IMG/VR virus record: IMGVR_UViG_3300008262_000055
Origin: a virus
Taxonomy: Duplodnaviria; Caudoviricetes
Direction: 5' to 3' (one strand)
DNA: 64,000 bases
The notes under the pieces were generated by a model. That model saw only the letters and a list, made by a program, of their open reading frames with translations, ran no database searches and was not told the DNA's origin. The position numbers and the translations under genes were made by a program. Below are positions 36,420-55,943 of the stretch, in pieces. The number at the start of each line of letters is the position of its first letter. The first letter of the stretch is position 1.

Positions 36420-36426
36420 TATTTAT
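36420..36426 (-). promoter_or_regulatory. T4-late-like promoter ATAAATA
   Basis: Upstream of 36398. Confidence 0.5.
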
Positions 36427-38996
36427 TGTCTAAATTTCTCTGCTTCAAATGTTGGAAATGCGAGATATTTATCCTCTATTTCTCCGTCTAAAGCATCTAT
36501 GATATAGCGATCTACTTCAAAGTCTAAAACTTTGAAATCAAATTGACTGTTTTTAATGTTTAGTATAATATCATCTGCTTGCCCGGGTTTAACGTAGCAC
36601 AGCGGAATCATACTTACAAATCCTGGTTCTGCAAATTGATCTTCTTGAATACTTCTCATCCATAACGGTAAGTATGACCTATCTCTATCTCCGGTCTGCT
36701 TAAGTCGCTTACGCATATTTTTAATAGAGTTTGGAAATATCCGTTGGTGATCTTCATCGCTGGCTAAGGGAATATCGCTGCTGACATTTATTCTTGTGTT
36801 ATTAATCAAAAATGGACTGTTGATAGTATCTGATAATGCTATTAAACTAGATATACTCTTTCCGTTCTTAACTAAAGGATCGACTATTTCTACATATACT
36901 ACTTCATATATTACATTTTGAGTAGATGTATCTTTGGCTACTGCTTTTTTTACACTACCAAAATTTAGTCTTTTGAAGTAATGATTTCTACTCATTGCCT
37001 GTACAAAGGTTTCGGCGTTGTTGCTTTCGATACCAGCAAACATCAGCATTTTAATTTCGTCCTGGACGCCAAACGCAGGATCGCCGTAACGATAGATTTT
37101 TTCTGGAATAAAAATAGAAAAATCTGAAATAAAATTATTCCAAACTTCTCTCTTTGATTTTTTCTGATAGGCTTTAAAATATAAGTTACTATAGACTATG
37201 TCAGCTTGTGTTTCTATTTTTATCTGAAAAGTTTTAGCACTTTCTGTATAGTTTAAGATATCTCTGGCTTCAACAATAAATGTATAGACTCTATCAAAAG
37301 ATGTTAAGTTACTGTCATATGTTGTTGAGGTATAATCTCTAGCACTGCTGCCATCCCAATTATAAAATCTAGTTATGCCTTCTACTAACTCTGTGCCTAT
37401 TTGATTAACCTTACCGTATATTTCACCTGACGGTAACAATTTTAATCCCGGAGGTAGATGTCCTGATCTTAGTTGATAAAATACATTTCCGCCGTTTATT
37501 TTAGACTGTGCTTCTACAAATAACATACTGTCTTTATTAGGACTGATAGTACCTAGCTCTCTATCTGATATCCATACAATACCGCTTTCAATTTCGCCCA
37601 ATACTCTTAGATTGAACGTTCTAGCCGTTGAAGCAGATACGCCGTTGTCGTATGTGTTTACAGCACTTACTGTAAATTTGTAATCTGTTGTTATTCTTGG
37701 TTGATAAGGTAAACTACCTACTAGTTCTCCTGTTATTGTATCGAGATCTAACCCTGGAGGAAATACACTGTCGTTGCCAAATATTATCTCAGCATCTTGA
37801 ATTACTCTTTCACCTAGACTAGGATTAAACGTAATTCCATACCTAGCAGTATATCCATCAATTTTTTCTACTTGTAAAATTGTGTAGGTTCCAAGGGAAC
37901 TGTCTAGATAATTGTAAACATTAGCAACAGCAAACTTTTGATTTCTTCTAGGTAAGCCAGTTACGCCTTTAGGGTCTGGAACTATGTCTACTTCAATATA
38001 ATCTGTTTCGTCTCTAAATATTCTAACAGATTTTCCGCTAAATTCGGGATTGATTGTTTCTGATCTATATGAAATATAACCAGGCATTGATGGCGGATTA
38101 TATACATCTAAATAAACTGTTACATAATTATTAGCACGTCTAATTCCCAGATCTGATTCAGTTAACCATATTGGTCTTCTTACATAGGTATTATCCGCTC
38201 TAAATATACCTGTGCCTACTTGCATTATAGTATTGTCAGATCTTAGGAAATCTTCGCTGACAACATAAATTTGGAAAGTTCGACGGTCTTCAAATAATCC
38301 GTCTGTGGCAACTACTGTAAATTGATAGTAGCGTGTTAATCGTCTTGGAAATCCTGTTTCGTCAAAGTAGTCAAAGGTTCTTGAATCAAAATCAAAACTG
38401 TCAAAGCCATTAATGGGTCTAGTACCTAGATCATAAGGTTCAGAATCAAATAAATTTAAATCAAAATTACCGCTGTATATCTTGTAGTCTAAGGCAAAAA
38501 TAGGATCGGTGAACCCTGTAATACGTCCGCCTCTTGATAATGTTAATCCTGGAGGAAGTTCCCCGCCGTTGTAAGGAATGTAGTATTCTATAGTGTCCCC
38601 GGCAGGCATATCGGGATCCATAGCTATTAATTGAAAATCTACTTTATCGTTGTCAAGAACAAAAAATGTTGAATTAGGACCTACTGGTAATAGGCCTCCT
38701 GTAGTTACCCATCGAGGTTCGTCGTACCCTCCTACAGATATACTAAATGTTCTATCTTTATTTTCTACACCATCGCTGGCTCGTATAACAAACCGTGAAG
38801 TAGTAGGTTTAGAAACTTCAAACGGAGTTCCTAGAATGTTATTATTTTCTAATCTAAGACCTCTAGGCAAGGATCCTGCCTGTATAGAAAAGGTCACTGG
38901 CCCTTGAGTTGATGTGGCAAGTATTGTTATATCTTGCCTATCTCTCTCATTTATGCTCCCTAGAGACCCAGGGGGTGTTATCCAAGACAGTGACAT
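36423..38996 (-). CDS. baseplate-wedge-like structural protein with Ig-like (LPPGL) repeats
   Basis: Repeated GSLPRGL, GELPPGL, FPPGL and GHLPPGL motifs; position in the structural block. Confidence 0.65.
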   Translation of the reverse strand: MSLSWITPPGSLGSINERDRQDITILATSTQGPVTFSIQAGSLPRGLRLENNNILGTPFEVSKPTTSRFVIRASDGVENKDRTFSISVGGYDEPRWVTTGGLLPVGPNSTFFVLDNDKVDFQLIAMDPDMPAGDTIEYYIPYNGGELPPGLTLSRGGRITGFTDPIFALDYKIYSGNFDLNLFDSEPYDLGTRPINGFDSFDFDSRTFDYFDETGFPRRLTRYYQFTVVATDGLFEDRRTFQIYVVSEDFLRSDNTIMQVGTGIFRADNTYVRRPIWLTESDLGIRRANNYVTVYLDVYNPPSMPGYISYRSETINPEFSGKSVRIFRDETDYIEVDIVPDPKGVTGLPRRNQKFAVANVYNYLDSSLGTYTILQVEKIDGYTARYGITFNPSLGERVIQDAEIIFGNDSVFPPGLDLDTITGELVGSLPYQPRITTDYKFTVSAVNTYDNGVSASTARTFNLRVLGEIESGIVWISDRELGTISPNKDSMLFVEAQSKINGGNVFYQLRSGHLPPGLKLLPSGEIYGKVNQIGTELVEGITRFYNWDGSSARDYTSTTYDSNLTSFDRVYTFIVEARDILNYTESAKTFQIKIETQADIVYSNLYFKAYQKKSKREVWNNFISDFSIFIPEKIYRYGDPAFGVQDEIKMLMFAGIESNNAETFVQAMSRNHYFKRLNFGSVKKAVAKDTSTQNVIYEVVYVEIVDPLVKNGKSISSLIALSDTINSPFLINNTRINVSSDIPLASDEDHQRIFPNSIKNMRKRLKQTGDRDRSYLPLWMRSIQEDQFAEPGFVSMIPLCYVKPGQADDIILNIKNSQFDFKVLDFEVDRYIIDALDGEIEDKYLAFPTFEAEKFRQ

Positions 38997-39006
38997 TCAT
39001 GATTCC

Positions 39007-40377
39007 TTAGAATGTGGCTAAAATAACAGGAGTTCTAATCCATATGTCAGCAACACCATCCCACGGTGCTATGCAGAAATAAATGTAATTGGCGTTTGCG
39101 TATATCATACCTGGCATATCACCGTTAAGACCTTTTGATGTAGCAGGAACAACATCTCTAAATGTAGCAAGCGGTGTACTAGTAGATGGATTAAAGAACC
39201 TTACAGTCTGCCCGCTTACGTTCCCTGAAGGAGTAAAAGTGCCAGTGGTTGTTACAGTACTACCTACGACGCTCTGAACTTCTAATTCTGAAGTACCACT
39301 TAGATAGAATTTAGCCCCATTTTTAATACCAGAACCAGATGTAACTGTAAAGTTAGTAGTTGAAACACCGTCGGGGATAGTAGCACTGAGCGTAGTAGTT
39401 ACTTCTACGTTACTGTTGATTCCGCCCCAAGCAGATAAGTTATCACCATCTAGTGTTAGATGTCTATCAGCAATGTTCAATCCGTTTTGGAAATAACCTG
39501 TGGTAAATCTATATTCTCTATTACCTACTCTTGAAGTGTCGTTAACCGCAGGAATAACTTCATCAACAGTTCCATTAGCATTAATACGTGATTCAACTCC
39601 ATCAACAAGCCTTGTAGAGTCATTGCCATAAACAGAGCCAAATACATCACCTAAAAGATTTGCTGGTAGTGTAATATCTCCGCTTAATCTAGTGTCAAAC
39701 AGAACATCACCTCCAGGAGTTTGTACAGCACCAATAAATGATCCAGTAACAACACCAGCTACGTTTCCGTTGACATCACCAAGAACATTACCTATAACGT
39801 TTCCAGTATGAGTTCCTGCGGTATTACCAGTGACATTAGCAAACACGGGACCAACTATTCTTCCTGATGTAGCATCAACTAATAACGTTGAATTATCTGC
39901 AAATATAGATCCAGTAACGTCTCCAGTATGATATCCCTCAGTGTTTCCATTGACAGTAGTAGCATCTACAATGTTAGCATAAACTGTATTCCATTTTTTA
40001 AGTGGAGCACCTAAGTCGTATGAATTATTTGTATCTGGAACAATATTAGAAATTATTTCTGCTTTAAATTCTACTTCGTCTGCGTCATTATTACCAAGTG
40101 TAATAGTTCCGTCTGATGTTATATTACCTGTAGCATGTATGTTACCAGTTACATCGATATCACCAGTTATGTCAATATTGCCTGTACCGGTAATGTCATT
40201 TCCGTTTAGAACAATATCATCAATAATTGTTCCGCCACTAGCTAATAGTTTTCCGCCGGCTAAGGCTCCGTCTCCTATATAGATCGCTTTTTGATCCGTG
40301 TCATAAACCAACTCTCCATTGAGTGGAGTGTAAGTTAATCTTTCAGCTGTGGTTCCTCTTTTTAATCTTAGAGCCAT
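39007..40377 (-). CDS. tail-fibre-like protein with Mtd_N-type N-terminus
   Basis: LRLKRGT...P..GEL.YDTD...IYIGDG; G-N-V-T repeats. Confidence 0.65.
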   Translation of the reverse strand: MALRLKRGTTAERLTYTPLNGELVYDTDQKAIYIGDGALAGGKLLASGGTIIDDIVLNGNDITGTGNIDITGDIDVTGNIHATGNITSDGTITLGNNDADEVEFKAEIISNIVPDTNNSYDLGAPLKKWNTVYANIVDATTVNGNTEGYHTGDVTGSIFADNSTLLVDATSGRIVGPVFANVTGNTAGTHTGNVIGNVLGDVNGNVAGVVTGSFIGAVQTPGGDVLFDTRLSGDITLPANLLGDVFGSVYGNDSTRLVDGVESRINANGTVDEVIPAVNDTSRVGNREYRFTTGYFQNGLNIADRHLTLDGDNLSAWGGINSNVEVTTTLSATIPDGVSTTNFTVTSGSGIKNGAKFYLSGTSELEVQSVVGSTVTTTGTFTPSGNVSGQTVRFFNPSTSTPLATFRDVVPATSKGLNGDMPGMIYANANYIYFCIAPWDGVADIWIRTPVILATF

Positions 40378-40390
40378 TTATAATTCTCCG

Positions 40391-41110
40391 TTAAAACGTT
40401 CCGAGATCTATTTCTAGATCGGTTGGGACTATTATAGTTCCCATGTCAAAGTCACTGTTGGAAACAAGAAATTGTAGAGCATTGTTGAATACATTTGTAT
40501 AAGTTCCAAAATCAAAAGAATACAACGCACTCACTGATTCAAAACCATTGTAGCCCCAAAGATCTCCATTAAAATTGTTAGCAGTAATGTTCCCGTTAAT
40601 TGTTATATTACCAGTACCGATAATATTATTTGTGTTTAAATCTAGATTCTGTAATAAAAGATTTCCTACAGGATCAGTATTAATTGTTATTGTTTTACCG
40701 TTAACTTCTAGATTAGTGTTAACCCCGCCTACAAAAGTTAGGGTTGTATCAGAAGTATCAGCACCAATTATTATACTAGCTTCTGGTACCGAAACTTTAG
40801 TAAAAACATTTTGTAACGGAGTAGAAATAGTAATATCGTTGGAATTTTCTGTAACTGTTATGTTAGCAGAACCTTTTATAGACCTAAATTCTAACCTATC
40901 TGACTCCGTTTCCGGAGCAATAGTTGCGTCGCCGTTAGCGTTTGATTTTCTTTTGTATACAGCAGCACCGTCGCCTAAACTGCGTCCTGCTAGAACTAAC
41001 TCGCTGTTTAACGATAAAAGGCTATTATTAACCTTTTGAAAAGCCGTGCGTAGATCGTCACCGAGCCCGTCGTTAACTAAATTTCCTATGTTTACTGTTT
41101 CTATAGCCAT
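40391..41110 (-). CDS. baseplate gp9/gp10-like structural protein
   Basis: VNIGNLVNDGLGDDLRTAFQKVN N-terminal motif. Confidence 0.65.
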   Translation of the reverse strand: MAIETVNIGNLVNDGLGDDLRTAFQKVNNSLLSLNSELVLAGRSLGDGAAVYKRKSNANGDATIAPETESDRLEFRSIKGSANITVTENSNDITISTPLQNVFTKVSVPEASIIIGADTSDTTLTFVGGVNTNLEVNGKTITINTDPVGNLLLQNLDLNTNNIIGTGNITINGNITANNFNGDLWGYNGFESVSALYSFDFGTYTNVFNNALQFLVSNSDFDMGTIIVPTDLEIDLGTF

Positions 41111-41129
41111 AATTATTGTTTCTATCTAA

Positions 41130-41136
41130 TATTTAT
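41130..41136 (-). promoter_or_regulatory. T4-late-like promoter ATAAATA
   Basis: Upstream of 41110. Confidence 0.5.
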
Positions 41137-42791
41137 CCGCGTCTTCTAATACGTAGGCGTGGATATATGTTACCTGCAGCTGGGCGTTGATCGTAACTAA
41201 CATCTGGAAAAGCTGAGCCTTGCTGTGCTCTTTCTATTGGAAAATATAGATATCTGTTTTTACTATCTCTAAGATTGGTAAAATCTCCGTAGTTTCCGTT
41301 AGTAGTTCCTATTTGCCCTGTTTTACATTTTTCAATTAGGTAATCGTATAATTCTTCAGGAGTAAAATTAGGATATCTACTCATAATACAAGCAATTACT
41401 CCTGCTACTTGCGGCCCAGACATACTAGTTCCTGATATTGAACCTAGTTTAAAAGTAGAGTTTCTTGGATCATCAGCTAAGGTAACTCCAAATTCACTGG
41501 CCGCTGTGGAATTGTAAACTGCTGATATTATATTTTGTCCAGGAGCCCATATATCTATTCTGTCACCGTAATTACTAAAATTTGTTTTATATTCTTGCGT
41601 AGAAGTACTTAATGCTCCTACACAAATAACTCCTGCGGCTGCTCCTGGGCTAGATCCATTAGAATGGTATAATACCCCGCCATTGTCTGTAATGCTATTA
41701 TTATAATCTGGATGAGTAGGGTCGTCAGTAACGTACCAATAACTATTTCCAGCCGAAGCTACGACAATGATTCCATCATCAATAGCATCAGCAATGTCTG
41801 CCTCCATAGCAGGATATCTTGCCGGAGTTCTATAAAGAAAAGTTCCTGCAGGTACAGGAACACCGTTGTTTTCTAACACAACTCTTTTGGCCGCGGTAGT
41901 TTGTCCAACTACATTAGTTGTACTGCCGCGATATGTAACTTCGTTTATACTTGAAAGTGATATACTGCCGTAGCTATAACCCCAACTGTTATTTGTGACA
42001 GTAGGATTTCTACGTCCAGTAACTGGATTAATTGGTTTACTGTTATGCCATGCTCTAAGAAAATCAAATAGGTACAACACCCAACCTTGAGGTTGACTCC
42101 AACTAGGATAATCAAATTCCATATAATAGATATTAGACTTTCTAGCCCAGCCTTGAGTATTACCTGCTGTTGTGCCTGCGGTATGTGTTCCGTGATTACT
42201 ACTAAAGGAAGCGTAGCTATATGTTCCTAAACCACTTAATCCTACTTCTGCTTGATGTTGAAACCAATCGTATTGAATAACTCTGGTACCGCCCGAGCCG
42301 TCTTCATTACGAGCAAACTCGGGATGAGCAGGATTTATATGGGCATCAATGATCACAACATCTACATGTTCACCTGCAGAATCTGTAGATATAGCAGTTT
42401 GTAATTCGTTGAATAATCCATTAGTACCCCAATCGTTAGTTTGAATCCCGTTTACAATTCTAGCTAACCCCCAATTTTTATCAGTAGATTGAATAGCTGT
42501 GCTTTTTTCAAATTTTCCAGTCTGCTTCCAGAAGGGAGTTGGCTCCATACCAAGATCTTTGGGTAATCTAGAAACTCCCGCTACACGAGGATCATTTTTT
42601 AATAAATCTGCTTCTTGGTTGGTAAGATAGTAATGAGTATTTCTGCTAATGTGTCTTCTACTGGCTACCGTTACAGATCGATCTGGAATATATAGATCGC
42701 CGCCAGGAGTTTCCATATCGTTATAGAATTGAGGCAAGTCCTCTTTATTTTTAAGAGTTACTATATATTCGTAACGATCTATTTCAGACAT
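41133..42791 (-). CDS. subtilisin-like (S8) serine protease with N-terminal prodomain
   Basis: Triad VVIID, HGTHTAG, GTSMSGP; oxyanion ASAGN. Confidence 0.9.
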   Translation of the reverse strand: MSEIDRYEYIVTLKNKEDLPQFYNDMETPGGDLYIPDRSVTVASRRHISRNTHYYLTNQEADLLKNDPRVAGVSRLPKDLGMEPTPFWKQTGKFEKSTAIQSTDKNWGLARIVNGIQTNDWGTNGLFNELQTAISTDSAGEHVDVVIIDAHINPAHPEFARNEDGSGGTRVIQYDWFQHQAEVGLSGLGTYSYASFSSNHGTHTAGTTAGNTQGWARKSNIYYMEFDYPSWSQPQGWVLYLFDFLRAWHNSKPINPVTGRRNPTVTNNSWGYSYGSISLSSINEVTYRGSTTNVVGQTTAAKRVVLENNGVPVPAGTFLYRTPARYPAMEADIADAIDDGIIVVASAGNSYWYVTDDPTHPDYNNSITDNGGVLYHSNGSSPGAAAGVICVGALSTSTQEYKTNFSNYGDRIDIWAPGQNIISAVYNSTAASEFGVTLADDPRNSTFKLGSISGTSMSGPQVAGVIACIMSRYPNFTPEELYDYLIEKCKTGQIGTTNGNYGDFTNLRDSKNRYLYFPIERAQQGSAFPDVSYDQRPAAGNIYPRLRIRRRG

Positions 42792-42792
42792 T

Positions 42793-43698
42793 TTAAACCT
42801 CTAATTTTATTAAAGATAACGTCACTGTTACAGTTCCAGTAACAGCGTCAGTATTAGTTACTCTCACATACACGTCGGTAGTAGGAACAGTTTCATCATT
42901 GAATCCAATAATACTTGGCGATATTAAAACTGGGTTGGTACCGTCAGTGATTGCTTCAGCTATAACTCCGGACCCCGGCAACGGATCGTCGGTGATTAGT
43001 CTTGAAGTATCGGCAAACCTAGCAGCCTGTGATGTATATACTCGAACCCATGCTGCTCTGTTTGTTAATATTTTTAACAATGCATAACTCTTAAATCCCA
43101 CTAAATCTAAATTTTCTGAGGCATTAGTTGCTAAACTTCCACTAGTGCCAACAGCAGTTGTTCTACTTTCCAACCCAGCACTAAGCAAATTGCCAACATC
43201 AGACAATTGATTAATGTCTGTAGGTATTTGATTATCGACGTATGTTTTTACAGCTAGTTTAGTAGCTAATGTAGAATTATCGTTGTCAACGGCAAATGTG
43301 GTATCTGTACTAATATTATCAACTAATACTCCAGAATCTAATTCTATAGAAGTAACTGATAGGACACTAGGAATAGCTGGAGTAATACCGCCAATAGTTG
43401 AACCTAATGGTAAATCTACAATACTGCCCGAAGAAGTAATTACCGCAGTCCCGATGTGTAATCCGGTTGAACTTACATAGATATTGTCCCATTTCTTACT
43501 GCTAGATCCTAGATCATGATCTTCGTCAAAATCTGGTATTAAACTCGATCCAAGAGATGTTAAGTCAACACCGGACCCACCAATACTAAGATATAACTCA
43601 GTAAAGTTATCGTTGATCTTGGCAAATATTGATTCAGTCTCTCCACCAAATTTTTCCCAAGTCAGCGGGGGTGTTATTGATATTGTTCTCTGTGCCAT
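42793..43698 (-). CDS. putative virion structural protein
   Basis: FAKINDNFTELY N-terminal motif shared with the giant protein. Confidence 0.65.
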   Translation of the reverse strand: MAQRTISITPPLTWEKFGGETESIFAKINDNFTELYLSIGGSGVDLTSLGSSLIPDFDEDHDLGSSSKKWDNIYVSSTGLHIGTAVITSSGSIVDLPLGSTIGGITPAIPSVLSVTSIELDSGVLVDNISTDTTFAVDNDNSTLATKLAVKTYVDNQIPTDINQLSDVGNLLSAGLESRTTAVGTSGSLATNASENLDLVGFKSYALLKILTNRAAWVRVYTSQAARFADTSRLITDDPLPGSGVIAEAITDGTNPVLISPSIIGFNDETVPTTDVYVRVTNTDAVTGTVTVTLSLIKLEV

Positions 43699-43700
43699 TC

Positions 43701-46700
43701 TTATAATCTCCCTACAGCAACTTCTATCAGGCCGATATAATCACTGTCATAGTTTTGTAATGCTTTTCCAATTATTGTACCAGGCTGAGCAACCTCGCCT
43801 GCCGAAATAGCAACACCTGATATTGAACTTGCAATTATTAAATCGCCTTTGTAAACTTTTCCTACTACTTTACATGGCACACGTCCCTGTAAAGCTACGC
43901 AAGATCTAGTTCCTTGTAATCCCTGGTTCATTGTGTATGCTGGGTTAGTAGTTACTACACCGGCTACTCTAGTAGTTCCTTGTTTGGTTGAAGCACGTAC
44001 TTCGGCATCGCCACCAAATTCTAAAACAGTTCCTGGTTCGTATTCTTTGTCTGAACTATACCACTCTGCTAAGTCGGCCCATGTGGCTTGGAAAGTAGCC
44101 CCAATATCTAAGGTAAATGTACCTTGTACAGTGGCAGCACTACTACCTCCACCTGCTTTTAATATCCCCCCAGAAATATTTAAAATGCCACCGCCACCTG
44201 TAGAATTATAGATTCTGTGTTCTTGAGCATAGTATTCTGTTCGTTTGTTAGCAGCACTATTGCCATCAACTAATACAATACCTAATCCACCGTTACCATT
44301 TCTTAGAACAGTTTTAAAAGCATTGTCGCCTGTACTTTCAATAGCTCTTTGTAATATAGTTGCAGTTGTACTGCCAATAGTTGCTCTAATACCCTTAGGA
44401 TTACTAATACTAGCAGTATCAGTGACTATAGTAATGTTGTCATTAGTTAAGATACCATTGGTAGTTATAAGGTTAGCTGAGAAATCACCGTTAGCATCTC
44501 TCTGTACTAGATCATTACTGCTGTTAGCAGAACCGTAGCCAATGGATGTGAAGCTGACGTCTGTAGGATCATTACTAAGGTCGGTTCGTACTATCACACC
44601 TTCTAACGGTACATCAAACTTAGATAATCCAAAACCGTCTCTTATAATAGTTCTAGCATCGATTGGTACAGGACTGCCTATTACGGAACCAGCAGTTGGT
44701 AAAGAACGTCTACCTAGTAGTTTAGTGCCGCCACCAGCATAGGTAGTTTCATCTGTAGCGTCATACACAGCAGGATCGATATAAGCAAGTTTGTCAAATG
44801 TAACACCCGTTGCTACACTGCTTGATGGTCTTAGTTGTAAGAAACCTGTGTTTGAAATTTGAAACTCTGTGGTCTTAGCACCGCTAAGAATACCGGGCTC
44901 TCTTACTTTAGCATTACCACTAAGCACACCAGTTAAGCCTGTAATAGGAATATCAAAAGTGTTTGTAGTAATGCTTACAGCCTTCCAGCGTTTGTTAATG
45001 CCTGACAGCGTTCCAGTAGTTTCGCCTAAGATCTCAATACTGTCATTTTCGCTAATACCATGTCCGTTAGCAGTAAATCTAGTAAAACCCGATGGAACTC
45101 CAGTAGTTGTATATGCTGTGATTGTAAATCCATCAGCAGCAGTATCGCGGATATAATTTAACTGAAGTTTATGTTGTAAAATTGCAGCATCGTAGTTTAT
45201 GTCGTCGTTGACTATAACGTTATCGTTGATAGTTGAAACAACAAACGGATCAGTCGGTGTTGTTGTGTTTAAAGTAAATGTTAACGCACCAGTCATTGTA
45301 GCATGACTAAACTGACTGTCAGTGCCAGTAAATGCTAATATGTCTGCTCTCTGTATAGCATAAGTTGGCGTACCTAATGCCGGTCTCCAATAGTCTGGAC
45401 CATCTTCTACGTTACCTAGCTTCATGAAGAACTTAGGCACAGCTTCTGTGTCACCTACAGCTCCTCTTCTTGGAGCAGGTAAGTTACGTAGAGTGTTACC
45501 GTCCATTTCGATAGTACCTTTAACTGCCAGTGAACCATCTAAAGCTAGATAACCTGGACCTCTTAGACCGTCTGTAACTCTAACACCAAAGTGATTTAAT
45601 CCTAATCGCTTGTCAATATAACTTCGAATAGCATATTCAGTTGGAACAGCCTGTGGGTCAGCCGCACCTTCGCCGCCCATAGTAATGTCGTTGGTAAATT
45701 CAAAAATTTCATTACCAGAGCGTAACTTGAGAGAGTCAATACCTTTCAAGTCGATCTTAGCATCAAGCGTAAGTTTACCAGTACCTTGGTCAACAGCAAA
45801 GAAGTCACCAACTTTAAAGTTACCGTTTTGGTCAGTACTTACATAGAATACACGACCTGTAGTTACTTCAACTACCTGTGCTTCAACGTCCGGCTCGTTA
45901 GCTGGCTCACCAAAGATATTACTTGGATAGTTAGTATCAGCATAAGAACCAGTACCAATGTCTAAGAAGTCATGACCAGTGGCTCGCATGGTTGAAATGT
46001 TAACAGTAACAGTACCTGTAGCACCTGCTCTAATACCTGCGTCAAACGATACATTTGTACCGTTGGTTTCTAATGGAGAATATGTTAATCCACCTAACAC
46101 TGTTAGGCTAGTAGCAACTCCTAGAGAACTAGAATTTACACCTAGAGTTAAATCTTCATCACTGTAAAGCTGAAGTTCCATCCTCACTGCTTTGGCTACA
46201 CCTCTTGAAATAATAGCTTCTGTAATATCTCCGCTGCCGCCTACATCATTTACTGTAATAATAATATCGTTGGTAGGAGTAGCACCACCTAGGCTAGTAC
46301 CTAAGATTCTTATAGTGTCTCCAATTTCATAGCCTGTGCCTGCCACACTAACTTGTATATTTTCGTAAACAATACTGTTAGTTCTTGTGATAATAAATGT
46401 AGCACCAACACCGCCACCAGTAGCAGGCACTACATTAGTACCTCCAATAGGTCCGTGATTAACATTGCTTACAACATTCTTAACATAATAATTAGAGCTA
46501 TTAATTTTAACTCTTCTGCCATCGGATAAGTTATGATCTGCTGTTAAGGCTAATTGAGCAGGTGAAGAACCTGTGACTGTAAAACTATATGTTCTAGAAC
46601 TTTCAATTAATGGTTGAGTAACATTTCTAAAGGTAATGATACCAAATATATTATTTGGGTCTAGATTATTAACTTCATAATCTGTGATTTCATACATAGA

Positions 46701-49700
46701 GTCCTGGAAACCAAAGATCATACCACCTGTGCCAGTAGTTGATCCATCATAGATCATAGCACCAGTAGTTGGGAATACCACACGTTTAGAATCTCTAAAA
46801 TTCAGAGCCTGGACGATTACACGATCATCACCTAGTTCTCCAAATCCCGCAGGAATATCAAACTCAGGAGTATCTTTTAAGATAGTGAGTTTAACATATT
46901 GATAGCCATCTCTAGTAGTAATAATTTGATCGTCAACCAAAGCATCAATATCATCGTACTGGTTAAAGCTCAATAATCTAATCGCTGTGCCTGTATTCTC
47001 ACTAAAGATAAGAGCAGTTGAAGGACGTACAGCAACAACTTCCTCTTTGTCTGATAGAACAAATTCTTCGTTGCTTCTAACAATTAAATTTTTACCAGGA
47101 GCAACATAAACCGCTAGGCCGGCATTGGCCGCAACAGTGCTTAACTGTAATTGTGCTACACCTGTAGGAAGACCTGATATAGTAACAGTTTCGACAACAT
47201 ATGATCTTTGACCAATAGTTGTTAAAGTATAAATTGTGCCATCGCCGTTGCCTGTGTTGGCTGCTGTAAATTTATCGCCTACGGCATACACTATAGCACT
47301 AGTTCCAGCCGCAGCATTCCAATCTGTAGTTCCTAACGTTGCAATTTCATATTCAGTGCCTACCTGTAAAGAGGTAGCAGGATTAATAGTATCGGTTCTA
47401 TCACCGGTATGATCTATGTCAACAATACATCCTGCTCTAGGTAGATATGAATAATTAGTTACCCAGATAGTATCGCCATTCCTTACATTTTCGATTTCTA
47501 AAGCTACATTTTCATAGGCCTGTGCTATCTGTATCATTGGGAATTTCAATACTACAGAATCTGGTATTTCGTTAGGATCAGCACCTTCAGCTTTAAGACC
47601 AAATACTCCGTGAGCTGATGAACCGTTCAGTGATCGAATCTGAGCTCCGTTGAGAGAATAGAAGGCTGTGTAGCAATAGTAAGTAAACACAGACACTTGC
47701 TCAGATAAACCGTTATTGGTACAGAAGATACCATACCCCATGTCGTTAACTTGAGTAAAGTCATTGCCCAACATAGACTTATTACCAGCTGTGCTGAGTA
47801 CTACTTTACCGGTAACGTTTTCTAAGAACTCCAATACAGCAGTCTTGATTGTTTCTTTAGCAGCAATTACTTCAGTTCTAGCTGCTAACTTATTAGCATC
47901 TTGACCTATAATAGTTGGTAATACTTCTGTAACCGGTGTGTCATAGTCGTCATCGGCAACATAGTCGATTAAGATATCTGTGAGGTTTTGTAAAGTAGTT
48001 CCCTCTGTGGCAGTAGCTGCAGGATTGCTAGTATCTTGTGTTAAGGTGTTACTAGATGATTTAGTCCATGAAACGGTATCGTTTTGTACAACATAGAATA
48101 ACACTGTTCTTAATCTTGTGAAAGCAGACGCCGTAATTACTTCTTGATCTGGTACAAAACTTTCTCCATCTCTATAATATGTTTCACCATTGTTTTTAGT
48201 CTGACTATTGCCACCGTAAAGCAAATCGTAGATCATACCATCTAATAGATAAGCTACGTCACGAGCACACTTGGCTGTGTCATATTCAAAACTAGGATTA
48301 GTATCAGTTACGTATGCGACTATTTCTGTCTTAATAAAATCTCTATTGGCCACTAACACATCAACTGCTTTGGCTTTATTAGAACCAACTGATACACTTG
48401 CCGGTAACGGGTATGTTACTGTGGGAGCAGCACCAACACCATTTCTTATTATGTTTCGAATTATTTCAAATCTATCTGAATAAGCACTTCTAGCTGCCGA
48501 ATAGATACCTTCTGGAATTAATGCCAACGCTTCAACTTCTGCTTTGGTAATGCCGTTGATAGTAGGTTGTTTCTGTTCGTCAATAACCACGCTGGAATAT
48601 GATCTTAGATATGATAGACCGGCTTTAACTGATTGATAGTTAGATCCTAATACCATATCGTAGTTAACAGCATCTAAGATTAGGCCAACGTCTCGAGCAC
48701 ACTTGGCTTGATTAAACAAACCGTTACCGTAATACGGACTGTCTAATACACACTCGTATTGAGGATATATTCCAGGCACGCCAGCTGTTTCACCACTAAT
48801 TAGTGTAGTGATATAATCTCTACCAGCGTTAATTGCTGCCTCAACACCAGAGTCAGTGATATCAATAACCACTAGTTCAGGATCAGTGACTTGATAGTAT
48901 TCTAAGGTGTGGGTTGTACCGCTGCCTGTGCCAACAATGTTTAATTCAATTGATGTACTAACACCTTTTTCTTTTGCAATTAACAGAGGTAAGTTTTCTA
49001 CAAGTTGAACATTGTCACCATCAACTACGTATACATAAAAAACAAGATCGTTTAAGTCGGTAATTGGATCACCATTCTCGTCGTCGAGGTTATCCACAAC
49101 AATAGAATTACCGCCACCGCTGCTGTATTTTATTCTAGATCCACTTTTGAATCCGTGATCTAAAATTGTAATAGTATTAGCTGTTAAATCAATGTTTGAG
49201 CTAGGATTAAAAGACTTAGTAGTTCTAACTAATCCACCTAACAATTCATTTTTAACAATCTTGTTAGCTAATAAAGCAGCATATTCAATACCGTCGATTG
49301 TTTCTGCTAACTGACTGGTTGGCCCAGAGTCGGGAATAATTCTTCCGCCTTGTTTATAATAAGCATAACCTGCTCTAACAGTATTATTGAAATCACCAAA
49401 AATATCTATAGACCATGCGTCTACAATATATCCAACATCTCTATAACAGGTATCTCTATCGTAATTTAGTGTAGGATAAATTGCATCTAGGTATGCGATT
49501 GTTTCAGCTTGTATAATTTCTTTGTTTGTTTGTAATAGATCTTTGGCCTTATAAATTGTTTCGCCAAATTCTACAATATTAGCAATAAGATCAAACGCAG
49601 CTTCTACTTCAGTCTGTGCGTCGCCGCCGTTTGGATAAGCTGGTAAAAATATTTGATCTACAGTACCAACACGTTCATAGTCTGGATCTTGTGTAATAAC

Positions 49701-52226
49701 AGCCACAGCTACTTCTTTGGCTTTAACTATTGCTGCTACAGTTTCTGCTACCTGACCAGAAACTACTGTATTACCGCCAACAAAATAAAGTCTAGCAGCT
49801 TGGGTGGAATTTAAATAGCCGCCGTATAACACGTCCTGGATTACAGCATCAACTAATAACCCCACATCTCTAAAACACTTGTCTTCGTTGAACTCTAATG
49901 TAGGAAATTCACCGTTAACAAATGCTACAGTTTCAGTCTGTATAAATCTTCTGTTTCTTTCAAGTAAAATCTTAGTATCAAAATAACCAGTCTCTATTCT
50001 ATTCGACAATGTTATTCTATATAGATTTTCACCTATAGTAAACGATGTTGGTAAACTAGGAGGACGTAATAAACCACCAATGATTACTTTTTCGTATTCT
50101 TTAAAAGTTGTAGGATCCGATGGAACATAAGCAGGATCACTAGGATCTACTTCTCGTTGTCTTAGTAAAACACCTTCTAGGTTACCAGAAAACCCGTCAA
50201 TAAATTGACCACCAGCAAATTGATGCTCGTTGATACTCTTAGAAAAACTAGTTCCTGTTTGGAAATAAGGTGACTTAGATAAAATTTGTCCATTTGGATC
50301 AAGCACCATGACAAAGCCGCCGTGTCCTTGGAAAGAAATTTCTGAAACACGGGTAGCATCATTACACAGTAATACATCCATTTCGTCATTGTTTTTTGGT
50401 TGACTTGAGTAGTCTAATGGATCTGTTAGATACTGATAACCGTATTCATATTCAGTTACACGCAATTCGTCAATGACGCGATCTCTTCTAAAGAAAACTC
50501 GAGCCCACGGTGATTGACTGATACCTGGTTTTGGTCTTATGATTGATCTACGAAGATCGTCTCCTCTTAGCGTAACGTTTTCTGCTAATCTTAATGGATA
50601 GTTTTCATAATAAATTCCAGTTTCAACATGGATAGTTACTTGGATATTTCTAGTAAGGTCGGCATAGCTAACTCTTTCTCCAAGCTGGAATACACCACTT
50701 AATACTTCAATTTCAAAAATCTCGTTACCGTCTTCGTCTAGCGAACCATCTTGTGAAACAATTCTAGCTAACGCACCTGATGTTTCGCCTCTTAAGGCTT
50801 GACCTTCACGAATGTCATCAAGATAGTCTGTGTTTAATCTTTCAGTTGATAACAACAATCTTGGAAGATAAACAGCTGCAGAAGGTACTCCGGTGTAACC
50901 AGTTCCTCCTTTAGCAACCGTAACTTCTTTGATTTCGCCACCGATCTCAGTAATAAAAGCTTCAGTTCCAGTTCCACCGCCGCCGGTGAAAATAACAGAA
51001 GCAGAAGTATAATTTTCTCCAGTGTCGGTGACATCGACCTGCGTTACAGTCCATCTAACTCTAGCACGAGCAGTACCTGAACCTGACCCGCCAACTAACA
51101 TTAGGTAATCGTTATCTACATGTGATTGGGGTAGTATGCTATAGATACCTTTTTGTTTGACATCGTCAACATCGGTGTTAATTGCTAACTGTAAAATAGA
51201 TCCAGCAAAGTCAACAGCAACAACTCTAAACTGTGTTTCTTGACCTAGATATGTTCCGCCGTTAGGGGTTAATATGTCATCCTTTTGATAACCAGTGCCT
51301 GCGATTAAAATCTGTATTGGCGATCCAATATCGTCAATACCCATTCGTGCTTCTACAGTACATCCGGTTCCCGACAGTTCCGATTCTTCAACAGAAACAA
51401 TTTCACAGAATTTAGTACCATTAGCATAGGTTAATATCTTTTGGTAAGGCCCCAATTCAAGCGGAGCATTGTTAACTAACTCTTCTGCTTTTTCGCAGGC
51501 CTTCTGAACAGTGGCAAAGGCAGTGGCTTCTGAACGTCCGATCTGATTTTGGGGGATGTCGGTTCTTTCATCGATGCCTCTAGGACTTACATAAATGTTG
51601 TATTCGCTGCTGAATGTTTTGCTATCTACATAGGCTTTTGTAGCAGCAATTAATCCGTTGTATTCTAAATCATCTTCTTCAATTGGATTTCTAGATAGCA
51701 CCAACGGACCACGCATCAATCCCCAATCTGGTCTAGCAAATCCGCTAACATCTATAGCATCAGTTCCGTCCAGACTTACCTTGTTGTCTACGTAGCCTTT
51801 GGTAGCAGCATCTTCGTCTTCAGTAGCTTCGCTAAGGTTAGTTAATCGTTTGAAGTTAGCATTTAAATTAGTTTGTAGTGTAGGGTCAGGGTCGTTAATC
51901 AACGCAGAAGCTAGAGAACTTAGACGTATTTGTCCGGGTATACTTTGATTAACAATAATAGTTTCAGAACCGACTAGTTCTTTAAAAACAATTTGTTCAC
52001 CCTCAGCATCAACTACTAGAACTCTGTTATTATCAGAAGTCCTATAACCTTTAACAGTTCGTTCTTTTTCAACATCGTCTAGGCCTATAAATGATAGTTT
52101 TCCACCTTGACCTAGGATAGCATATAATTCTGTAAAGTTTTCATTAACTTTTTGGAACGAATCGCGAATACTGTCGCCTGTACCGTCATTACCTTCGATA
52201 CCGATATTAATTTCTTTTCTTGACAT
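43701..52226 (-). CDS. giant (2841 aa) tail/baseplate-associated protein: gp9/10-like anchor, beta-helix-like region, four C-x-R-D helical repeats, C-terminal peptidase-G2-like chaperone
   Basis: INIGIEGNDGTGDSIRDSFQKVNENFTELY; GIYYENYPLRLAENVTLRGD; ADLAEWY...YEPGTVL...GRVPCKV. Confidence 0.8.
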   Translation of the reverse strand: MSRKEINIGIEGNDGTGDSIRDSFQKVNENFTELYAILGQGGKLSFIGLDDVEKERTVKGYRTSDNNRVLVVDAEGEQIVFKELVGSETIIVNQSIPGQIRLSSLASALINDPDPTLQTNLNANFKRLTNLSEATEDEDAATKGYVDNKVSLDGTDAIDVSGFARPDWGLMRGPLVLSRNPIEEDDLEYNGLIAATKAYVDSKTFSSEYNIYVSPRGIDERTDIPQNQIGRSEATAFATVQKACEKAEELVNNAPLELGPYQKILTYANGTKFCEIVSVEESELSGTGCTVEARMGIDDIGSPIQILIAGTGYQKDDILTPNGGTYLGQETQFRVVAVDFAGSILQLAINTDVDDVKQKGIYSILPQSHVDNDYLMLVGGSGSGTARARVRWTVTQVDVTDTGENYTSASVIFTGGGGTGTEAFITEIGGEIKEVTVAKGGTGYTGVPSAAVYLPRLLLSTERLNTDYLDDIREGQALRGETSGALARIVSQDGSLDEDGNEIFEIEVLSGVFQLGERVSYADLTRNIQVTIHVETGIYYENYPLRLAENVTLRGDDLRRSIIRPKPGISQSPWARVFFRRDRVIDELRVTEYEYGYQYLTDPLDYSSQPKNNDEMDVLLCNDATRVSEISFQGHGGFVMVLDPNGQILSKSPYFQTGTSFSKSINEHQFAGGQFIDGFSGNLEGVLLRQREVDPSDPAYVPSDPTTFKEYEKVIIGGLLRPPSLPTSFTIGENLYRITLSNRIETGYFDTKILLERNRRFIQTETVAFVNGEFPTLEFNEDKCFRDVGLLVDAVIQDVLYGGYLNSTQAARLYFVGGNTVVSGQVAETVAAIVKAKEVAVAVITQDPDYERVGTVDQIFLPAYPNGGDAQTEVEAAFDLIANIVEFGETIYKAKDLLQTNKEIIQAETIAYLDAIYPTLNYDRDTCYRDVGYIVDAWSIDIFGDFNNTVRAGYAYYKQGGRIIPDSGPTSQLAETIDGIEYAALLANKIVKNELLGGLVRTTKSFNPSSNIDLTANTITILDHGFKSGSRIKYSSGGGNSIVVDNLDDENGDPITDLNDLVFYVYVVDGDNVQLVENLPLLIAKEKGVSTSIELNIVGTGSGTTHTLEYYQVTDPELVVIDITDSGVEAAINAGRDYITTLISGETAGVPGIYPQYECVLDSPYYGNGLFNQAKCARDVGLILDAVNYDMVLGSNYQSVKAGLSYLRSYSSVVIDEQKQPTINGITKAEVEALALIPEGIYSAARSAYSDRFEIIRNIIRNGVGAAPTVTYPLPASVSVGSNKAKAVDVLVANRDFIKTEIVAYVTDTNPSFEYDTAKCARDVAYLLDGMIYDLLYGGNSQTKNNGETYYRDGESFVPDQEVITASAFTRLRTVLFYVVQNDTVSWTKSSSNTLTQDTSNPAATATEGTTLQNLTDILIDYVADDDYDTPVTEVLPTIIGQDANKLAARTEVIAAKETIKTAVLEFLENVTGKVVLSTAGNKSMLGNDFTQVNDMGYGIFCTNNGLSEQVSVFTYYCYTAFYSLNGAQIRSLNGSSAHGVFGLKAEGADPNEIPDSVVLKFPMIQIAQAYENVALEIENVRNGDTIWVTNYSYLPRAGCIVDIDHTGDRTDTINPATSLQVGTEYEIATLGTTDWNAAAGTSAIVYAVGDKFTAANTGNGDGTIYTLTTIGQRSYVVETVTISGLPTGVAQLQLSTVAANAGLAVYVAPGKNLIVRSNEEFVLSDKEEVVAVRPSTALIFSENTGTAIRLLSFNQYDDIDALVDDQIITTRDGYQYVKLTILKDTPEFDIPAGFGELGDDRVIVQALNFRDSKRVVFPTTGAMIYDGSTTGTGGMIFGFQDSMYEITDYEVNNLDPNNIFGIITFRNVTQPLIESSRTYSFTVTGSSPAQLALTADHNLSDGRRVKINSSNYYVKNVVSNVNHGPIGGTNVVPATGGGVGATFIITRTNSIVYENIQVSVAGTGYEIGDTIRILGTSLGGATPTNDIIITVNDVGGSGDITEAIISRGVAKAVRMELQLYSDEDLTLGVNSSSLGVATSLTVLGGLTYSPLETNGTNVSFDAGIRAGATGTVTVNISTMRATGHDFLDIGTGSYADTNYPSNIFGEPANEPDVEAQVVEVTTGRVFYVSTDQNGNFKVGDFFAVDQGTGKLTLDAKIDLKGIDSLKLRSGNEIFEFTNDITMGGEGAADPQAVPTEYAIRSYIDKRLGLNHFGVRVTDGLRGPGYLALDGSLAVKGTIEMDGNTLRNLPAPRRGAVGDTEAVPKFFMKLGNVEDGPDYWRPALGTPTYAIQRADILAFTGTDSQFSHATMTGALTFTLNTTTPTDPFVVSTINDNVIVNDDINYDAAILQHKLQLNYIRDTAADGFTITAYTTTGVPSGFTRFTANGHGISENDSIEILGETTGTLSGINKRWKAVSITTNTFDIPITGLTGVLSGNAKVREPGILSGAKTTEFQISNTGFLQLRPSSSVATGVTFDKLAYIDPAVYDATDETTYAGGGTKLLGRRSLPTAGSVIGSPVPIDARTIIRDGFGLSKFDVPLEGVIVRTDLSNDPTDVSFTSIGYGSANSSNDLVQRDANGDFSANLITTNGILTNDNITIVTDTASISNPKGIRATIGSTTATILQRAIESTGDNAFKTVLRNGNGGLGIVLVDGNSAANKRTEYYAQEHRIYNSTGGGGILNISGGILKAGGGSSAATVQGTFTLDIGATFQATWADLAEWYSSDKEYEPGTVLEFGGDAEVRASTKQGTTRVAGVVTTNPAYTMNQGLQGTRSCVALQGRVPCKVVGKVYKGDLIIASSISGVAISAGEVAQPGTIIGKALQNYDSDYIGLIEVAVGRL
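47900..49990 (-). repeat. four degenerate ~143-aa helical protein repeats with (K/T)C-x-RDV motif
   Basis: Cys codons at ~49876, 49447, 48700, 48268; spacings 429 and 432 nt within pairs; boundaries approximate. Confidence 0.8.
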
Positions 52227-53336: not shown

Positions 53337-53663
53337 TTAAACCCTAAACGATTCGCCACAACCACAGCGAGCTTTTTCGTTAGGATTTATGAATTCAAAA
53401 CCTTCGTTCAAACCTTTTTTCTGCCAGTCCATAGTAAGTCCATTGACATAAGGACTGCTACGACCGTCAACCCAAACTTTAATTCCGTTGCTCTCGTAGA
53501 CAAATTGATCTCTAGTAATAGGAGCAACATCTACATATTCTAAAACATAAGCAAGTCCTGAACAGCCGCTGGTCTTAACGCCAACACGGATACCAAGCCC
53601 ACCGCCTCTACGTTCCAATTGTTGTTTTACTTTTTTAGCTGCTAGATCTGATAGAGTTATCAT
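53337..53663 (-). CDS. iscA: Fe-S cluster assembly protein IscA
   Basis: [26 protein letters not shown]. Confidence 0.92.
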
Positions 53664-54039
53664 ATTTCTCTTTATAGTCCTTTACTGCTGCCTTAATAGC
53701 ATCTTCTGCTAGAATTGAACAATGTATCTTAACCGGAGGCAATGCTAGTTCTGTGGCGATTTCGGAGTTTTTGATTGTTCCGGCTTCATCGAGTGTTTTG
53801 CCCTTGAGCCATTCTGTAGCAAGGCTCGAGCTCGCAATAGCCGATCCGCAGCCATACGTTTTAAATTTTGCATCTGTAATAATACCTGTATCATGATCTA
53901 CCTTTATCTGTAATTTCATAACATCGCCGCAAGCAGGAGCACCAACCATCCCAGTACCTACATTAGTATCGGTTTTGTCAAAACTACCCACGTTACGAGG
54001 ATTTTCATAATGGTCAATAACTTTGTCTGAATATGCCAT
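53635..54039 (-). CDS. iscU: Fe-S scaffold IscU
   Basis: [34 protein letters not shown]. Confidence 0.96.
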
Positions 54040-54625: not shown

Positions 54626-54928
54626 ATCGTACTTTTCGCAGTAGTTGTAGTAGCACTAGGTGCTTTCATTTATTACAATCGTAGCTCTAAGAGTTTAGAC
54701 GTAAACAATGATGGTAAAGTAGATGCTGCTGACGCTAAAGCCGCTGTCCAAAACGTAGTAGAAGGTGTCAAAGCCTCCGCTGACGTAAACAAAGACGGTA
54801 AAGTAGATGCCGCTGATGTAGCAGTAGTTAAAGAAAAAGCCAAAGCAGTTGCTAAGAAAACAACAGCTAAGGTTAAAGAAACTGCTAAGAAAGCAGCACC
54901 TCGCGGTCGCAAGCCACAGGCAAAGTAA
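54626..54928 (+). pseudogene. membrane-anchored dockerin/EF-hand-like repeat protein with Lys/Ala tail; no start codon or SD visible
   Basis: Hand-translated IVLFAVVVVALGAFIYY...DVNNDGKVDAAD...DVNKDGKVDAAD...KPQAK*; in-frame TAG at 54599 and no ATG between. Confidence 0.65.
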
Positions 54929-55943
54929 TACCCTTAGCCTCTTCGTATAGTGCAAACGAAGCTAAATTCTTAGCTTTGCTTTCGCACATGATATCGAAGT
55001 TATCCCTAAAACTCAGAGCCCATTGATTCACTGCTGTATTCCAGTAGAAGTTTGAGTGTGCCCTGAGTTTTGCTTTTTTATGTCCTGAGTCTAGGAGGGT
55101 CTGAAGAGCGGGACGTGATTCTCTGGAATGTTCTCCAAGTATATCTTCCCTAGAAACAGAGTAGTGTATGACAGGCCGCACACCACGCCAGCTATCAATA
55201 ATCCTTTTAACACGATCGTCAGTAACTTCAATATATTCTCCAGTTTTAATCCAGTGGTGATGAATGTCTAAGACTAGGGCACAGTCATTGACTAAGTCAA
55301 TACTATCTTCAATACCCCAGGTCATTTCGTCGTTTTCGATAGTTAGTGTATTACGGGCTTCGGGTGTCATCCGTGCCAAAGCACTACGGATACCTGCTGG
55401 ACCTTGTCGGCCTGCGATATGAACATTAATTTTAAAGTCTTGAAACGTTTTACCGTAGCCCATCCAGCGAACCATGTCCACATGATATTCAAACTCCTCT
55501 ATAGATCGATTTACAATATCTGGATTATCGCTAGCCAACACAGTAAACTGGCCAGGATGCATAGATAGCCGAACGTTTTTCTCACGAGCAATATCTCCGA
55601 CTCGTTTAAATTCTCTTTCACAATAGGCTCGCACATCGGGATTCCGCCAATACCCGCCCCAAGTTGGCTCAGTGTAGACAGGGAGGATATCGCTACTGAG
55701 TCGTACCATTCTAAGACTTTCATCTTGTTCTCCTACCAGAGAAACAAGTTTACGCACCGCTTCTATGTTGCCTACCATTAGATCCCATAGTTTTTGTTCC
55801 GCAACATCTCTGGTCTGTCTATTTAACCAGGCCACAGTAGTACTACCTGTGTTGTATTGTTTACAGTTGTCTTTTTGTTTGATACCGTCAATTTGACTAG
55901 GACCGTCGATCCACTTGCAGGCAAAGCCTATACGTTTAATCAT
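54885..55943 (-). CDS. uvsE: UV damage endonuclease
   Basis: RLSSD, RLSMHPGQF, LTIEND, LVLDIHHH, HSN motifs. Confidence 0.88.
   Translation of the reverse strand: MIKRIGFACKWIDGPSQIDGIKQKDNCKQYNTGSTTVAWLNRQTRDVAEQKLWDLMVGNIEAVRKLVSLVGEQDESLRMVRLSSDILPVYTEPTWGGYWRNPDVRAYCEREFKRVGDIAREKNVRLSMHPGQFTVLASDNPDIVNRSIEEFEYHVDMVRWMGYGKTFQDFKINVHIAGRQGPAGIRSALARMTPEARNTLTIENDEMTWGIEDSIDLVNDCALVLDIHHHWIKTGEYIEVTDDRVKRIIDSWRGVRPVIHYSVSREDILGEHSRESRPALQTLLDSGHKKAKLRAHSNFYWNTAVNQWALSFRDNFDIMCESKAKNLASFALYEEAKGITLPVACDREVLLS

Follow-up and report, generated by a model that had tools for sequence, protein, structure and literature searches.

The subject of this report is a giant gene, P0001, within a 64,000-nucleotide stretch of viral DNA (IMG/VR record IMGVR_UViG_3300008262_000055; Duplodnaviria, Caudoviricetes) that we refer to, in its whole length, as the window. 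The region 47900-49990, in which a first-pass annotation made from the sequence alone had noticed four phycobiliprotein-like repeats, is part of a single minus-strand open reading frame (ORF) at 43701-52226 with a predicted product of 2841 amino acids (aa). Four parts of this product are almost certainly real phycobiliprotein-type domains, and the gene that contains them resembles the genes for baseplate and tail-fibre proteins of phages. The recognizable parts of P0001 are the following.

43701..52226, minus strand: giant gene P0001 for a putative virion (baseplate/tail-fibre-like) protein, a single ORF; PHROG matches to families of tail fibre and virion structural proteins at E 2e-48 to 1e-18
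52107..52220, minus strand: T4 gp9/gp10-like segment for attachment to the baseplate at the N-terminus, aa 3-40; Pfam PF07880 and gp10 chains
49578..50003, minus strand: phycobiliprotein-like domain 1, aa 742-883; family profile E 2.4e-38; motif CFRD at 49866-49877, Cys784 codon at 49875-49877
49203..49568, minus strand: phycobiliprotein-like domain 2, aa 887-1008; family profile E 2.6e-36; motif CYRD at 49437-49448, Cys927 codon at 49446-49448
48849..49202, minus strand: ~118-aa insert separating the domain pairs, aa 1009-1126; outside the domain-profile matches, visible in the repeat alignment
48417..48848, minus strand: phycobiliprotein-like domain 3, aa 1127-1270; family profile E 3.6e-30; motif CARD at 48690-48701, Cys1176 codon at 48699-48701
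47964..48419, minus strand: phycobiliprotein-like domain 4, aa 1270-1421; family profile E 8.8e-41; motif CARD at 48258-48269, Cys1320 codon at 48267-48269
47814..47927, minus strand: putative vestige of a fifth unit (its helices one and two), aa ~1434-1471; profile positions 6-43 matched weakly, E 0.18
45606..46064, minus strand: tail-fibre-like region, aa 2055-2207; phrog_9851 tail fiber protein, E 2e-48
43713..44255, minus strand: C-terminal domain common to other phage fibre-like proteins, aa 2658-2838; phrog_6427 E 1.3e-12, phrog_22593 E 1.6e-11

The motif C-x-R-D occurs exactly four times in P0001, with its Cys at residues 784, 927, 1176 and 1320, where the residue composition of the protein predicts 0.04 occurrences. 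The units that carry it are 30-35% identical to each other in pairwise comparisons, and a profile of the repeat family recovers all four as full units (E 4e-30 to 9e-41), together with the weak N-terminal remnant of a fifth that was also detected in the orthologs of P0001; the same profile has no match in any other ORF or reading frame of the window. The repeats are thus confirmed, and all of the peptides quoted in the first-pass annotation are present in P0001. That annotation had described four repeats of ~143 aa in a row; the motifs and their number hold, but the arrangement does not, since the Cys-to-Cys spacings of 143, 249 and 144 imply two tandem pairs with an insert of ~118 aa (residues ~1009-1126) between them. 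Domain 3, to which the PF00502 score (22.0 bits) and the C-phycocyanin alpha match (E 1.4e-3) given below belong, is the most phycocyanin-like of the four units and has a long B-E loop.

The kinship of these units with phycobiliproteins can be traced in sequence comparisons of increasing depth. A phmmer search of residues 740-1450 against all PDB chains returned almost only C-phycocyanin alpha chains (best E 1.4e-3). When a family alignment of 99 units (A2) was compared by hhalign with 24 CpcA/CpcB sequences, the genes for which were taken from metagenome contigs, the match had a probability of 93.3% and an E-value of 2.7e-7, and C-x-R-D fell on Cys84/Arg86/Asp87, residues of the chromophore helix whose phycocyanin alpha sequence had been given correctly in the first-pass annotation (19 residues followed by (I/V)AGG in the retrieved phycocyanin sequences). 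This attachment site, at the Cys84 position of helix E, is present in 4 of 4 domains in the window and in ~99% of the 2117 copies considered below. Positions 18-73 of the A2 profile correspond to phycocyanin alpha residues 37-103, and the resemblance claimed for the A/B-helix segment that precedes the motif is borne out by a profile alignment of columns 20-75 with phycobiliprotein residues 39-104. The sequence match that had been proposed for the terminal helix was not seen; the resemblance there is at the level of the fold only. The Pfam model for phycobiliproteins, PF00502 (Phycobilisome), matches 6 of the 99 family units at E<=0.01, and in one relative the alignment covers model positions 30-154 of 155.

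Structure prediction led to the same family. Repeat 4 was modelled by AlphaFold2 without templates (pLDDT 91.4, pTM 0.86), and when the model was compared with the PDB by Foldseek, the best 50 matches were all phycobiliproteins, with TM-scores of 0.58-0.71. Exhaustive structural alignment with VIA-align gave Z-scores of 13.8 for phycoerythrin, 13.7 for allophycocyanin and 11.6-12.5 for the bilin domain of ApcE, whereas photocobilins and heme or sensor globins reached at most 10.4. The model of repeat 3 is poorer (pLDDT 78), and its top 50 PDB matches are again all phycobiliproteins, weakly so; the globin-like fold that the first-pass annotation had anticipated is what the predictions returned, with phycobiliproteins as the best matches for repeat 4 and, weakly, for repeat 3. 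Judged from the repeat 4 model and the alignments, the phage unit is a globin core made of helices A, B and E-H, in which the two helices that precede the Cys helix both align to helices A/B. The N-terminal X-Y helix hairpin, by which phycobiliproteins form the alpha-beta monomer, is absent, and the alignments begin at phycobiliprotein residue ~19-39. There is no His-dominated column among the 159 profile positions, and hence no conserved proximal His; because of this, canonical heme binding is unlikely and heme binding by the domains was rejected. Thus, phmmer, the profile, hhalign and the structural comparisons agree on units of the phycobiliprotein type with the motif on Cys84/Arg86/Asp87, and we regard them, on the strength of alignments and models, as genuine remote members of the superfamily of phycobiliproteins and bilin biosynthesis-associated globins (BBAGs) that lie outside the strict limits of PF00502.

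The units share with phycobiliproteins the globin-type helical core, the Cys-x-Arg-Asp on helix E, and similar B-helix and "GG" segments, the latter following helix E. Phycobiliproteins such as C-phycocyanin alpha, phycoerythrin and allophycocyanin (PF00502) are stand-alone subunits of ~165 aa, whereas the phage units occur as 4-37 tandem copies in proteins of one to six thousand residues, are without the X-Y hairpin, score below or at the Pfam cut-off and have additional invariant residues (Asp+14, Tyr+30 and Thr+45, numbered from the Cys). They also differ in being phage-encoded, here apparently by a phage of a non-cyanobacterial host, in having no lyase genes nearby and in that their chromophore is a putative one. 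A parallel in architecture is ApcE, the core-membrane linker of the phycobilisome, in which a phycobiliprotein-type domain is likewise embedded in a much larger multi-domain protein. The bilin-binding domain of ApcE is reported to acquire its bilin in a lyase-free manner. It is the only domain of this type in ApcE, which continues with linker repeats and resides in the phycobilisome core, whereas P0001 has several copies in a putative virion fibre. The BBAGs (Rockwell et al. 2023, PMC10151467) are phycobiliprotein paralogues outside photosynthesis, some of which have the CXRD motif and attach bilins to themselves without a lyase, in genomes with genes for heme oxygenase and for a bilin reductase that is ferredoxin-dependent (FDBR); phycobiliproteins arose within such globins. 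By description, to which our comparison is confined, BBAGs are small cellular proteins encoded beside bilin genes, whereas the phage domains form tandem arrays encoded ~75 kb from hemO-pcyX.

The domain family is phage-specific. A word-index search yielded 797 giant proteins, many of them already flagged with PF00502, and an exhaustive profile search of 1.84 billion representatives yielded 1632 clusters, in which a single protein may contain as many as 37 copies. All of the matches are giant multi-copy proteins, and no small stand-alone relatives (82-260 aa) were found at E<=0.001. Among cultured phages the domain was seen only in T4-like cyanophages (72 records), whose predicted structures match as well, and the long "tail fibre-like" or "structural" proteins of S-PM2, S-WAM2 and P-HM1/2 carry the same domain fold and family. 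A scan of 185,579 prokaryote genomes with a degenerate motif gave multi-copy matches only in bins of metagenome-assembled genomes (Rhodobacteraceae Water_Bin34 and Crocinitomicaceae); because the coverages of the contigs differ, these are probably mis-binned phage contigs and provide no host assignment. Megablast of the P0001 gene against cultured phages gave no match, and a related-locus search with P0009 in viral contigs found nothing.

Conservation within the family was assessed in a census by hidden Markov model of 2117 motif-covering copies from 121 proteins, which were not picked by the motif but by a profile that had been built from motif-selected units. Against a mean column identity of ~17%, the triad is nearly invariant (Cys 99.1%, Arg at Cys+2 98.8%, Asp at Cys+3 99.7%), as are Asp at Cys+14 (99.9%) and Tyr at Cys+30 (99%), followed by Thr at Cys+45 (92%) and Asp at Cys+9 (84%). 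Loss of the Cys across homologs had been named in the first-pass annotation as grounds for abandoning its proposal, and the Cys proved to be kept. The members of the triad tend to be lost together: Arg and/or Asp is missing from 12 of 18 Cys-less copies and from 16 of 2099 Cys-containing copies (Fisher 3e-20, a value that is no true probability because the copies are related).

Orthologs of the P0001 gene reside on IMG/VR contigs of 169-364 kb, and in all three of the related contigs that extend far enough, including the complete genome G003, adjacent genes for a heme oxygenase (hemO) and an FDBR are located 71-78 kb upstream of the orthologous giant gene. Two other contigs, one of them bearing an ortholog 92% identical to P0001, are without hemO and FDBR, and both end short of the expected position. 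PcyX is a phage enzyme that produces phycoerythrobilin, and the FDBR of G003 is a PcyX (PDB 5owg, E 5e-68). One complete related contig with a heme oxygenase and PcyX is IMGVR_UViG_3300021963_000021. The first-pass annotation had suggested a link to phage heme oxygenases and bilin reductases and a search for these and for lyases; the former are present in relatives of the window phage, and lyases of the CpeT/CpeS type were not encountered in the five related records examined for them. The relatives contain no GAF domain and no other phycobiliprotein, and so offer no rival bilin acceptor; a phage phytochrome or cyanobacteriochrome was rejected as the acceptor on the former ground. Why phages of non-photosynthetic hosts carry hemO together with pcyX or pcyA has been called enigmatic, with phytochromes or BBAG-like globins as speculated partners (PMC11480375), and exactly this hemO-pcyX cassette occurs in the relatives of the window phage; the window itself does not contain it. 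In the complete related phage, a gene for a ClpS adaptor stands directly beside hemO-pcyX (L041:2979-3281, Pfam ClpS E 5e-30).

The association between the domain and the FDBR is strong, but not absolute. Large contigs picked solely for PcyX have the domain in giant ORFs in five of five cases. Conversely, near-complete, psbA-less large contigs picked solely by the domain motif have an FDBR in two of three cases (the third, G017, is without one), or in three of four if G003 is counted. The phages Phosso, Atu_ph07 and HTVC008M have neither domain nor FDBR, and among 50,697 cultured-phage records the sole non-cyanophage with a PcyX-like gene is the pelagiphage Mosig.

The assignment of P0001 to the virion, and to a trimeric fibre, is inferred from its N-terminus, its PHROG matches and the genes downstream. 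PF07880 matches the N-terminus with E 2.3e-5 and 25 bits, which is exactly the Pfam cut-off, and the T4 gp10 chains 5hx2/2fl8 match residues 2-41 (E 0.002), so that the N-terminal attachment domain typical of T4 gp10-like baseplate proteins can be recognized over ~40 residues. The likeness to the T4 baseplate wedge protein gp10 is restricted to these first ~40 residues; P0001 is ~5x longer, and the phages that have its orthologs are freshwater jumbo phages. Beyond the N-terminus, the PHROG matches are to families of tail fibre, short tail fibre and virion structural proteins. The C-terminal domain (aa 2658-2838) has no relative among solved structures, and a complex prediction for three copies of one domain had a score of 0.00, which is uninformative about assembly. 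The genes downstream form the following module.

36423..43698, minus strand: five-gene fibre/baseplate module; matches to Peptidase_S8, Mtd_N and He_PIG in Pfam, and to baseplate wedge tail fiber connector (E 6.5e-6) in PHROG

Its genes specify a 301-aa protein without assignment, a subtilase-like protein, a weakly gp9-like connector, an Mtd_N protein and an immunoglobulin-domain protein. The subtilase (Peptidase_S8, E 2e-29; 41133-42791, minus strand), two genes downstream of P0001, could have a role in processing or maturation of the fibre. A second large ORF (60842-64000, plus strand; >1052 aa) runs past the end of the window, has matches to virion structural and short tail fibre families of PHROG, and is without the phycobiliprotein-like domain.

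From these observations we propose that P0001 is a giant fibre, anchored in the baseplate through its T4 gp10-like N-terminus, the shaft of which would hold the four globin-fold domains, remote homologues of phycobiliproteins and BBAGs, with the triad on the equivalent of helix E. In the infected cell, most probably, the phage heme oxygenase would open host heme and PcyX would reduce the product to phycoerythrobilin, which would then become thioether-linked to the conserved Cys of each domain in a lyase-free reaction like those of ApcE and the BBAGs. Assembly would yield virions with pigmented fibres. How the pigment might be used is more speculative: light sensing could shift the conformation of the fibre and so gate adsorption, or the bilin could be a stabilizing or photoprotective cofactor. 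That a bilin produced through hemO and pcyX of the phage itself is covalently bound to the domains is, in view of the motif, the models and the analogous systems, a proposition that we regard as somewhat probable; that such a pigment serves light sensing for adsorption we consider quite unlikely. Our search of the literature, the coverage of which was incomplete, found no report of phycobiliprotein-like domains in phage virion proteins, and an earlier description is possible.

Several observations weigh against a bilin on these domains, and most of them would be accommodated if the phycobiliprotein-derived globin domain were a structural module only, i.e., a rigid bead of the fibre shaft that holds no chromophore, in which folding, or contacts between domains or chains, would be what maintains Cys-x-Arg-Asp and the remaining invariant residues, and if hemO-pcyX had a different function, for example in iron release or host metabolism. 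Asp+14, Tyr+30 and Thr+45 (residues 1334, 1350 and 1365 in the window, nt ~48132-48227) are invariant in the phage family and not in phycobiliproteins, and Asp+14 and Tyr+30 persist in Cys-less copies, which points to a structural or other role. The ~54%-identical orthologs P0084, P0094 and P0095 have kept repeats 3 and 4 after losing the triad from them, while repeats 1 and 2 retain it. The domain is found only in long tandem arrays within giant fibre-like proteins and never as a small stand-alone protein. The hemO-pcyX genes are ~75 kb from the giant gene and not clustered with it, and for the window phage they would be expected ~59-66 kb past the high end of the window, which places them outside it. 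No CpeT/CpeS-type (CpcT/CpcS) lyase was found by PF06206 or PF09367 in five related jumbo-phage records, including the complete one, E/F-type lyases not having been searched. The co-occurrence of domain and FDBR is largely that of one phage clade and is not phylogenetically independent; moreover, G017, a 99%-complete genome of 160 kb with one copy of the domain, has no FDBR, and Mosig has hemO and pcyX and no detectable domain, so that PcyX has another use there at least. Nevertheless, a purely structural role, though the foremost of the alternatives, seems to us rather unlikely. Packing alone would hardly maintain a single unpaired Cys in 99% of >2100 copies at ~17% identity in a presumably extracellular protein, the triad comprises exactly the ligand-contacting residues of the homologous family and is lost jointly, and domain-bearing phages that lack psbA are strongly enriched for hemO and FDBR.

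It is also conceivable that the domains bind something other than a Cys-linked, phage-made bilin, for example a host-surface molecule in receptor binding, a metal or a non-covalent tetrapyrrole, or that the Cys residues form cross-links. Several acidic and polar positions that are invariant share a single face of a helix (Asp+3, Asp+9 and Asp+14) and, in addition to Tyr+30 and Thr+45, would suit such a ligand, and P0001 belongs to a fibre module with genes of the receptor-binding type. However, the receptor-binding parts of fibres normally vary, whereas the C-x-R-D site is near-invariant across very different phages and matches the bilin site residue for residue; as canonical heme binding is disfavoured too, we judge these ligands to be improbable. 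The likeness to phycobiliproteins might, finally, have arisen by convergence or by chance in a helical repeat of unrelated origin. The scores of single sequences and of Pfam are indeed marginal, with PF00502 reaching 22.0 bits on residues 740-1450, just under its cut-off of 22.2, and 13.7-15.2 bits on other cuts of P0001, and a search of AlphaFold-DB clusters yielded no more than weak matches (E 0.1-1.2), to globin, RsbR and "phycobilisome protein" entries. Such an origin is nonetheless barely credible against a template-free model that has nothing but phycobiliproteins among its 50 best PDB matches, the 93% profile-profile match, the near-full alignment of the Pfam model in a relative, and the number of motifs, which is far above the chance expectation in P0001 and exceeds 2000 in its homologs.

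Two sets of sequences that bear on these alternatives can be described further. The motifs in repeats 3 and 4 of P0084, P0094 and P0095 are degraded to forms such as DFSRD, ARSAD, KFSSD and AYSRN, in which the Cys and, in part, the Arg or Asp are lost, and together they look like a natural series of "mutants". In Mosig (L132, MT647606 36653-43330), hemO-pcyX is flanked on one side by the genes for three 2-oxoglutarate (2OG)-Fe(II) oxygenases and a ferrochelatase, and on the opposite side by those for the neck and the tail sheath.

The possibility that a fibre-bound pigment affects adsorption can be related to certain cyanophages. A passage in PMC6628666, citing Jia et al. 2010, describes light-dependent adsorption that is independent of host photosynthesis and ascribes it to light-sensitive receptors and/or tail fibres. 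For the five phages whose phenotype is stated in that article, the comparison with the domain is as follows.

S-PM2: light-dependent adsorption, 9 copies of the domain
P-HM1: light-dependent adsorption, 4 copies
P-HM2: light-dependent adsorption, 4 copies
P-SSM2: adsorption in the dark, no domain
P-SSP7: adsorption in the dark, no domain

The presence of the domain thus agrees with light-dependent adsorption in five of five phages, a tiny correlation that is confounded by relatedness and is a lead rather than a test, because P-HM1 and P-HM2 belong to a single species and P-SSP7, in turn, is a podovirus. A fibre-bound bilin acting as the photoreceptor for adsorption would explain both the light dependence of S-PM2 and P-HM2 and the existence of hemO/PcyX in phages of non-photosynthetic hosts, such as the freshwater jumbo lineage of the window phage, an explanation that we put forward as a doubtful one. 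No virion proteomics for the cyanophage homologs was found in the literature. In S-PM2 (L278, NC_006820 160450-173268), the bilin lyase gene cpeT and a 2OG-Fe(II) oxygenase gene are immediately upstream of a domain-bearing giant gene, cpeT being 1.4 kb before the start of the latter; the RefSeq coding sequence for a "short tail fiber protein" of this phage spans a block of tRNA genes and is probably an annotation error.

The window phage itself is a T4-superfamily jumbo phage of lakes, the polymerase of which is nearest to those of Rhizobiales jumbo phages. In addition to P0001, the window has genes for a T4-type DNA polymerase, for a clamp loader and for an ATP-dependent protease (780 aa; 23087-25429, minus strand; phrog_4871, E 2e-248). 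The polymerase is closest to that of Sinorhizobium phage Phosso (50.7%), followed by Agrobacterium phage Atu_ph07 (47%) and then the Rak2/121Q-like jumbo phages. DNA nearly identical to that of the window occurs in lake and freshwater metagenomes from ~15 studies, and a search of sequencing runs listed no near-identical RNA. The related jumbo-phage genomes have neither psbA/psbD nor hli, which, together with the polymerase, agrees with the non-cyanobacterial look that the first-pass annotation had ascribed to the phage; on these grounds a cyanophage identity was provisionally rejected. Just upstream of the P0001 gene are genes for a NifU-like Fe-S cluster assembly protein (53635-54039, minus strand; phrog_8429, E 4e-41) and a UvdE UV-damage endonuclease (54885-55943, minus strand; Pfam E 9e-40), which, as far as their sequence matches go, would fit a light-exposed phage that runs ferredoxin-dependent chemistry. 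Taken as a whole, the interpretation offered in the first-pass annotation has held in part, with respect to the identity of the domains, the non-cyanobacterial look of the phage and the connection to hemO/PcyX in its relatives; the sequence match of the terminal helix was not seen, the bilin remains a putative one, and a strict coupling of domain and FDBR has two counter-examples, Mosig and G017.

The domains described here make the role of heme oxygenase and PcyX/PcyA genes in phages of non-photosynthetic bacteria directly testable, since the domains with an intact predicted bilin site in these phages add up to hundreds of kilodaltons and there is no other candidate acceptor. The same applies to the adsorption of some cyanophages only in the light, independently of host photosynthesis. 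If the proposal is true, a chromophore-bearing, light-responsive virion would represent a new kind of virus biology, and the domains would amount to an extensive natural collection of compact modules for bilin binding, perhaps independent of lyases. If the domains turn out to be colourless, they would still show, strikingly, how an antenna fold of photosynthesis was recruited into the construction of phage fibres.

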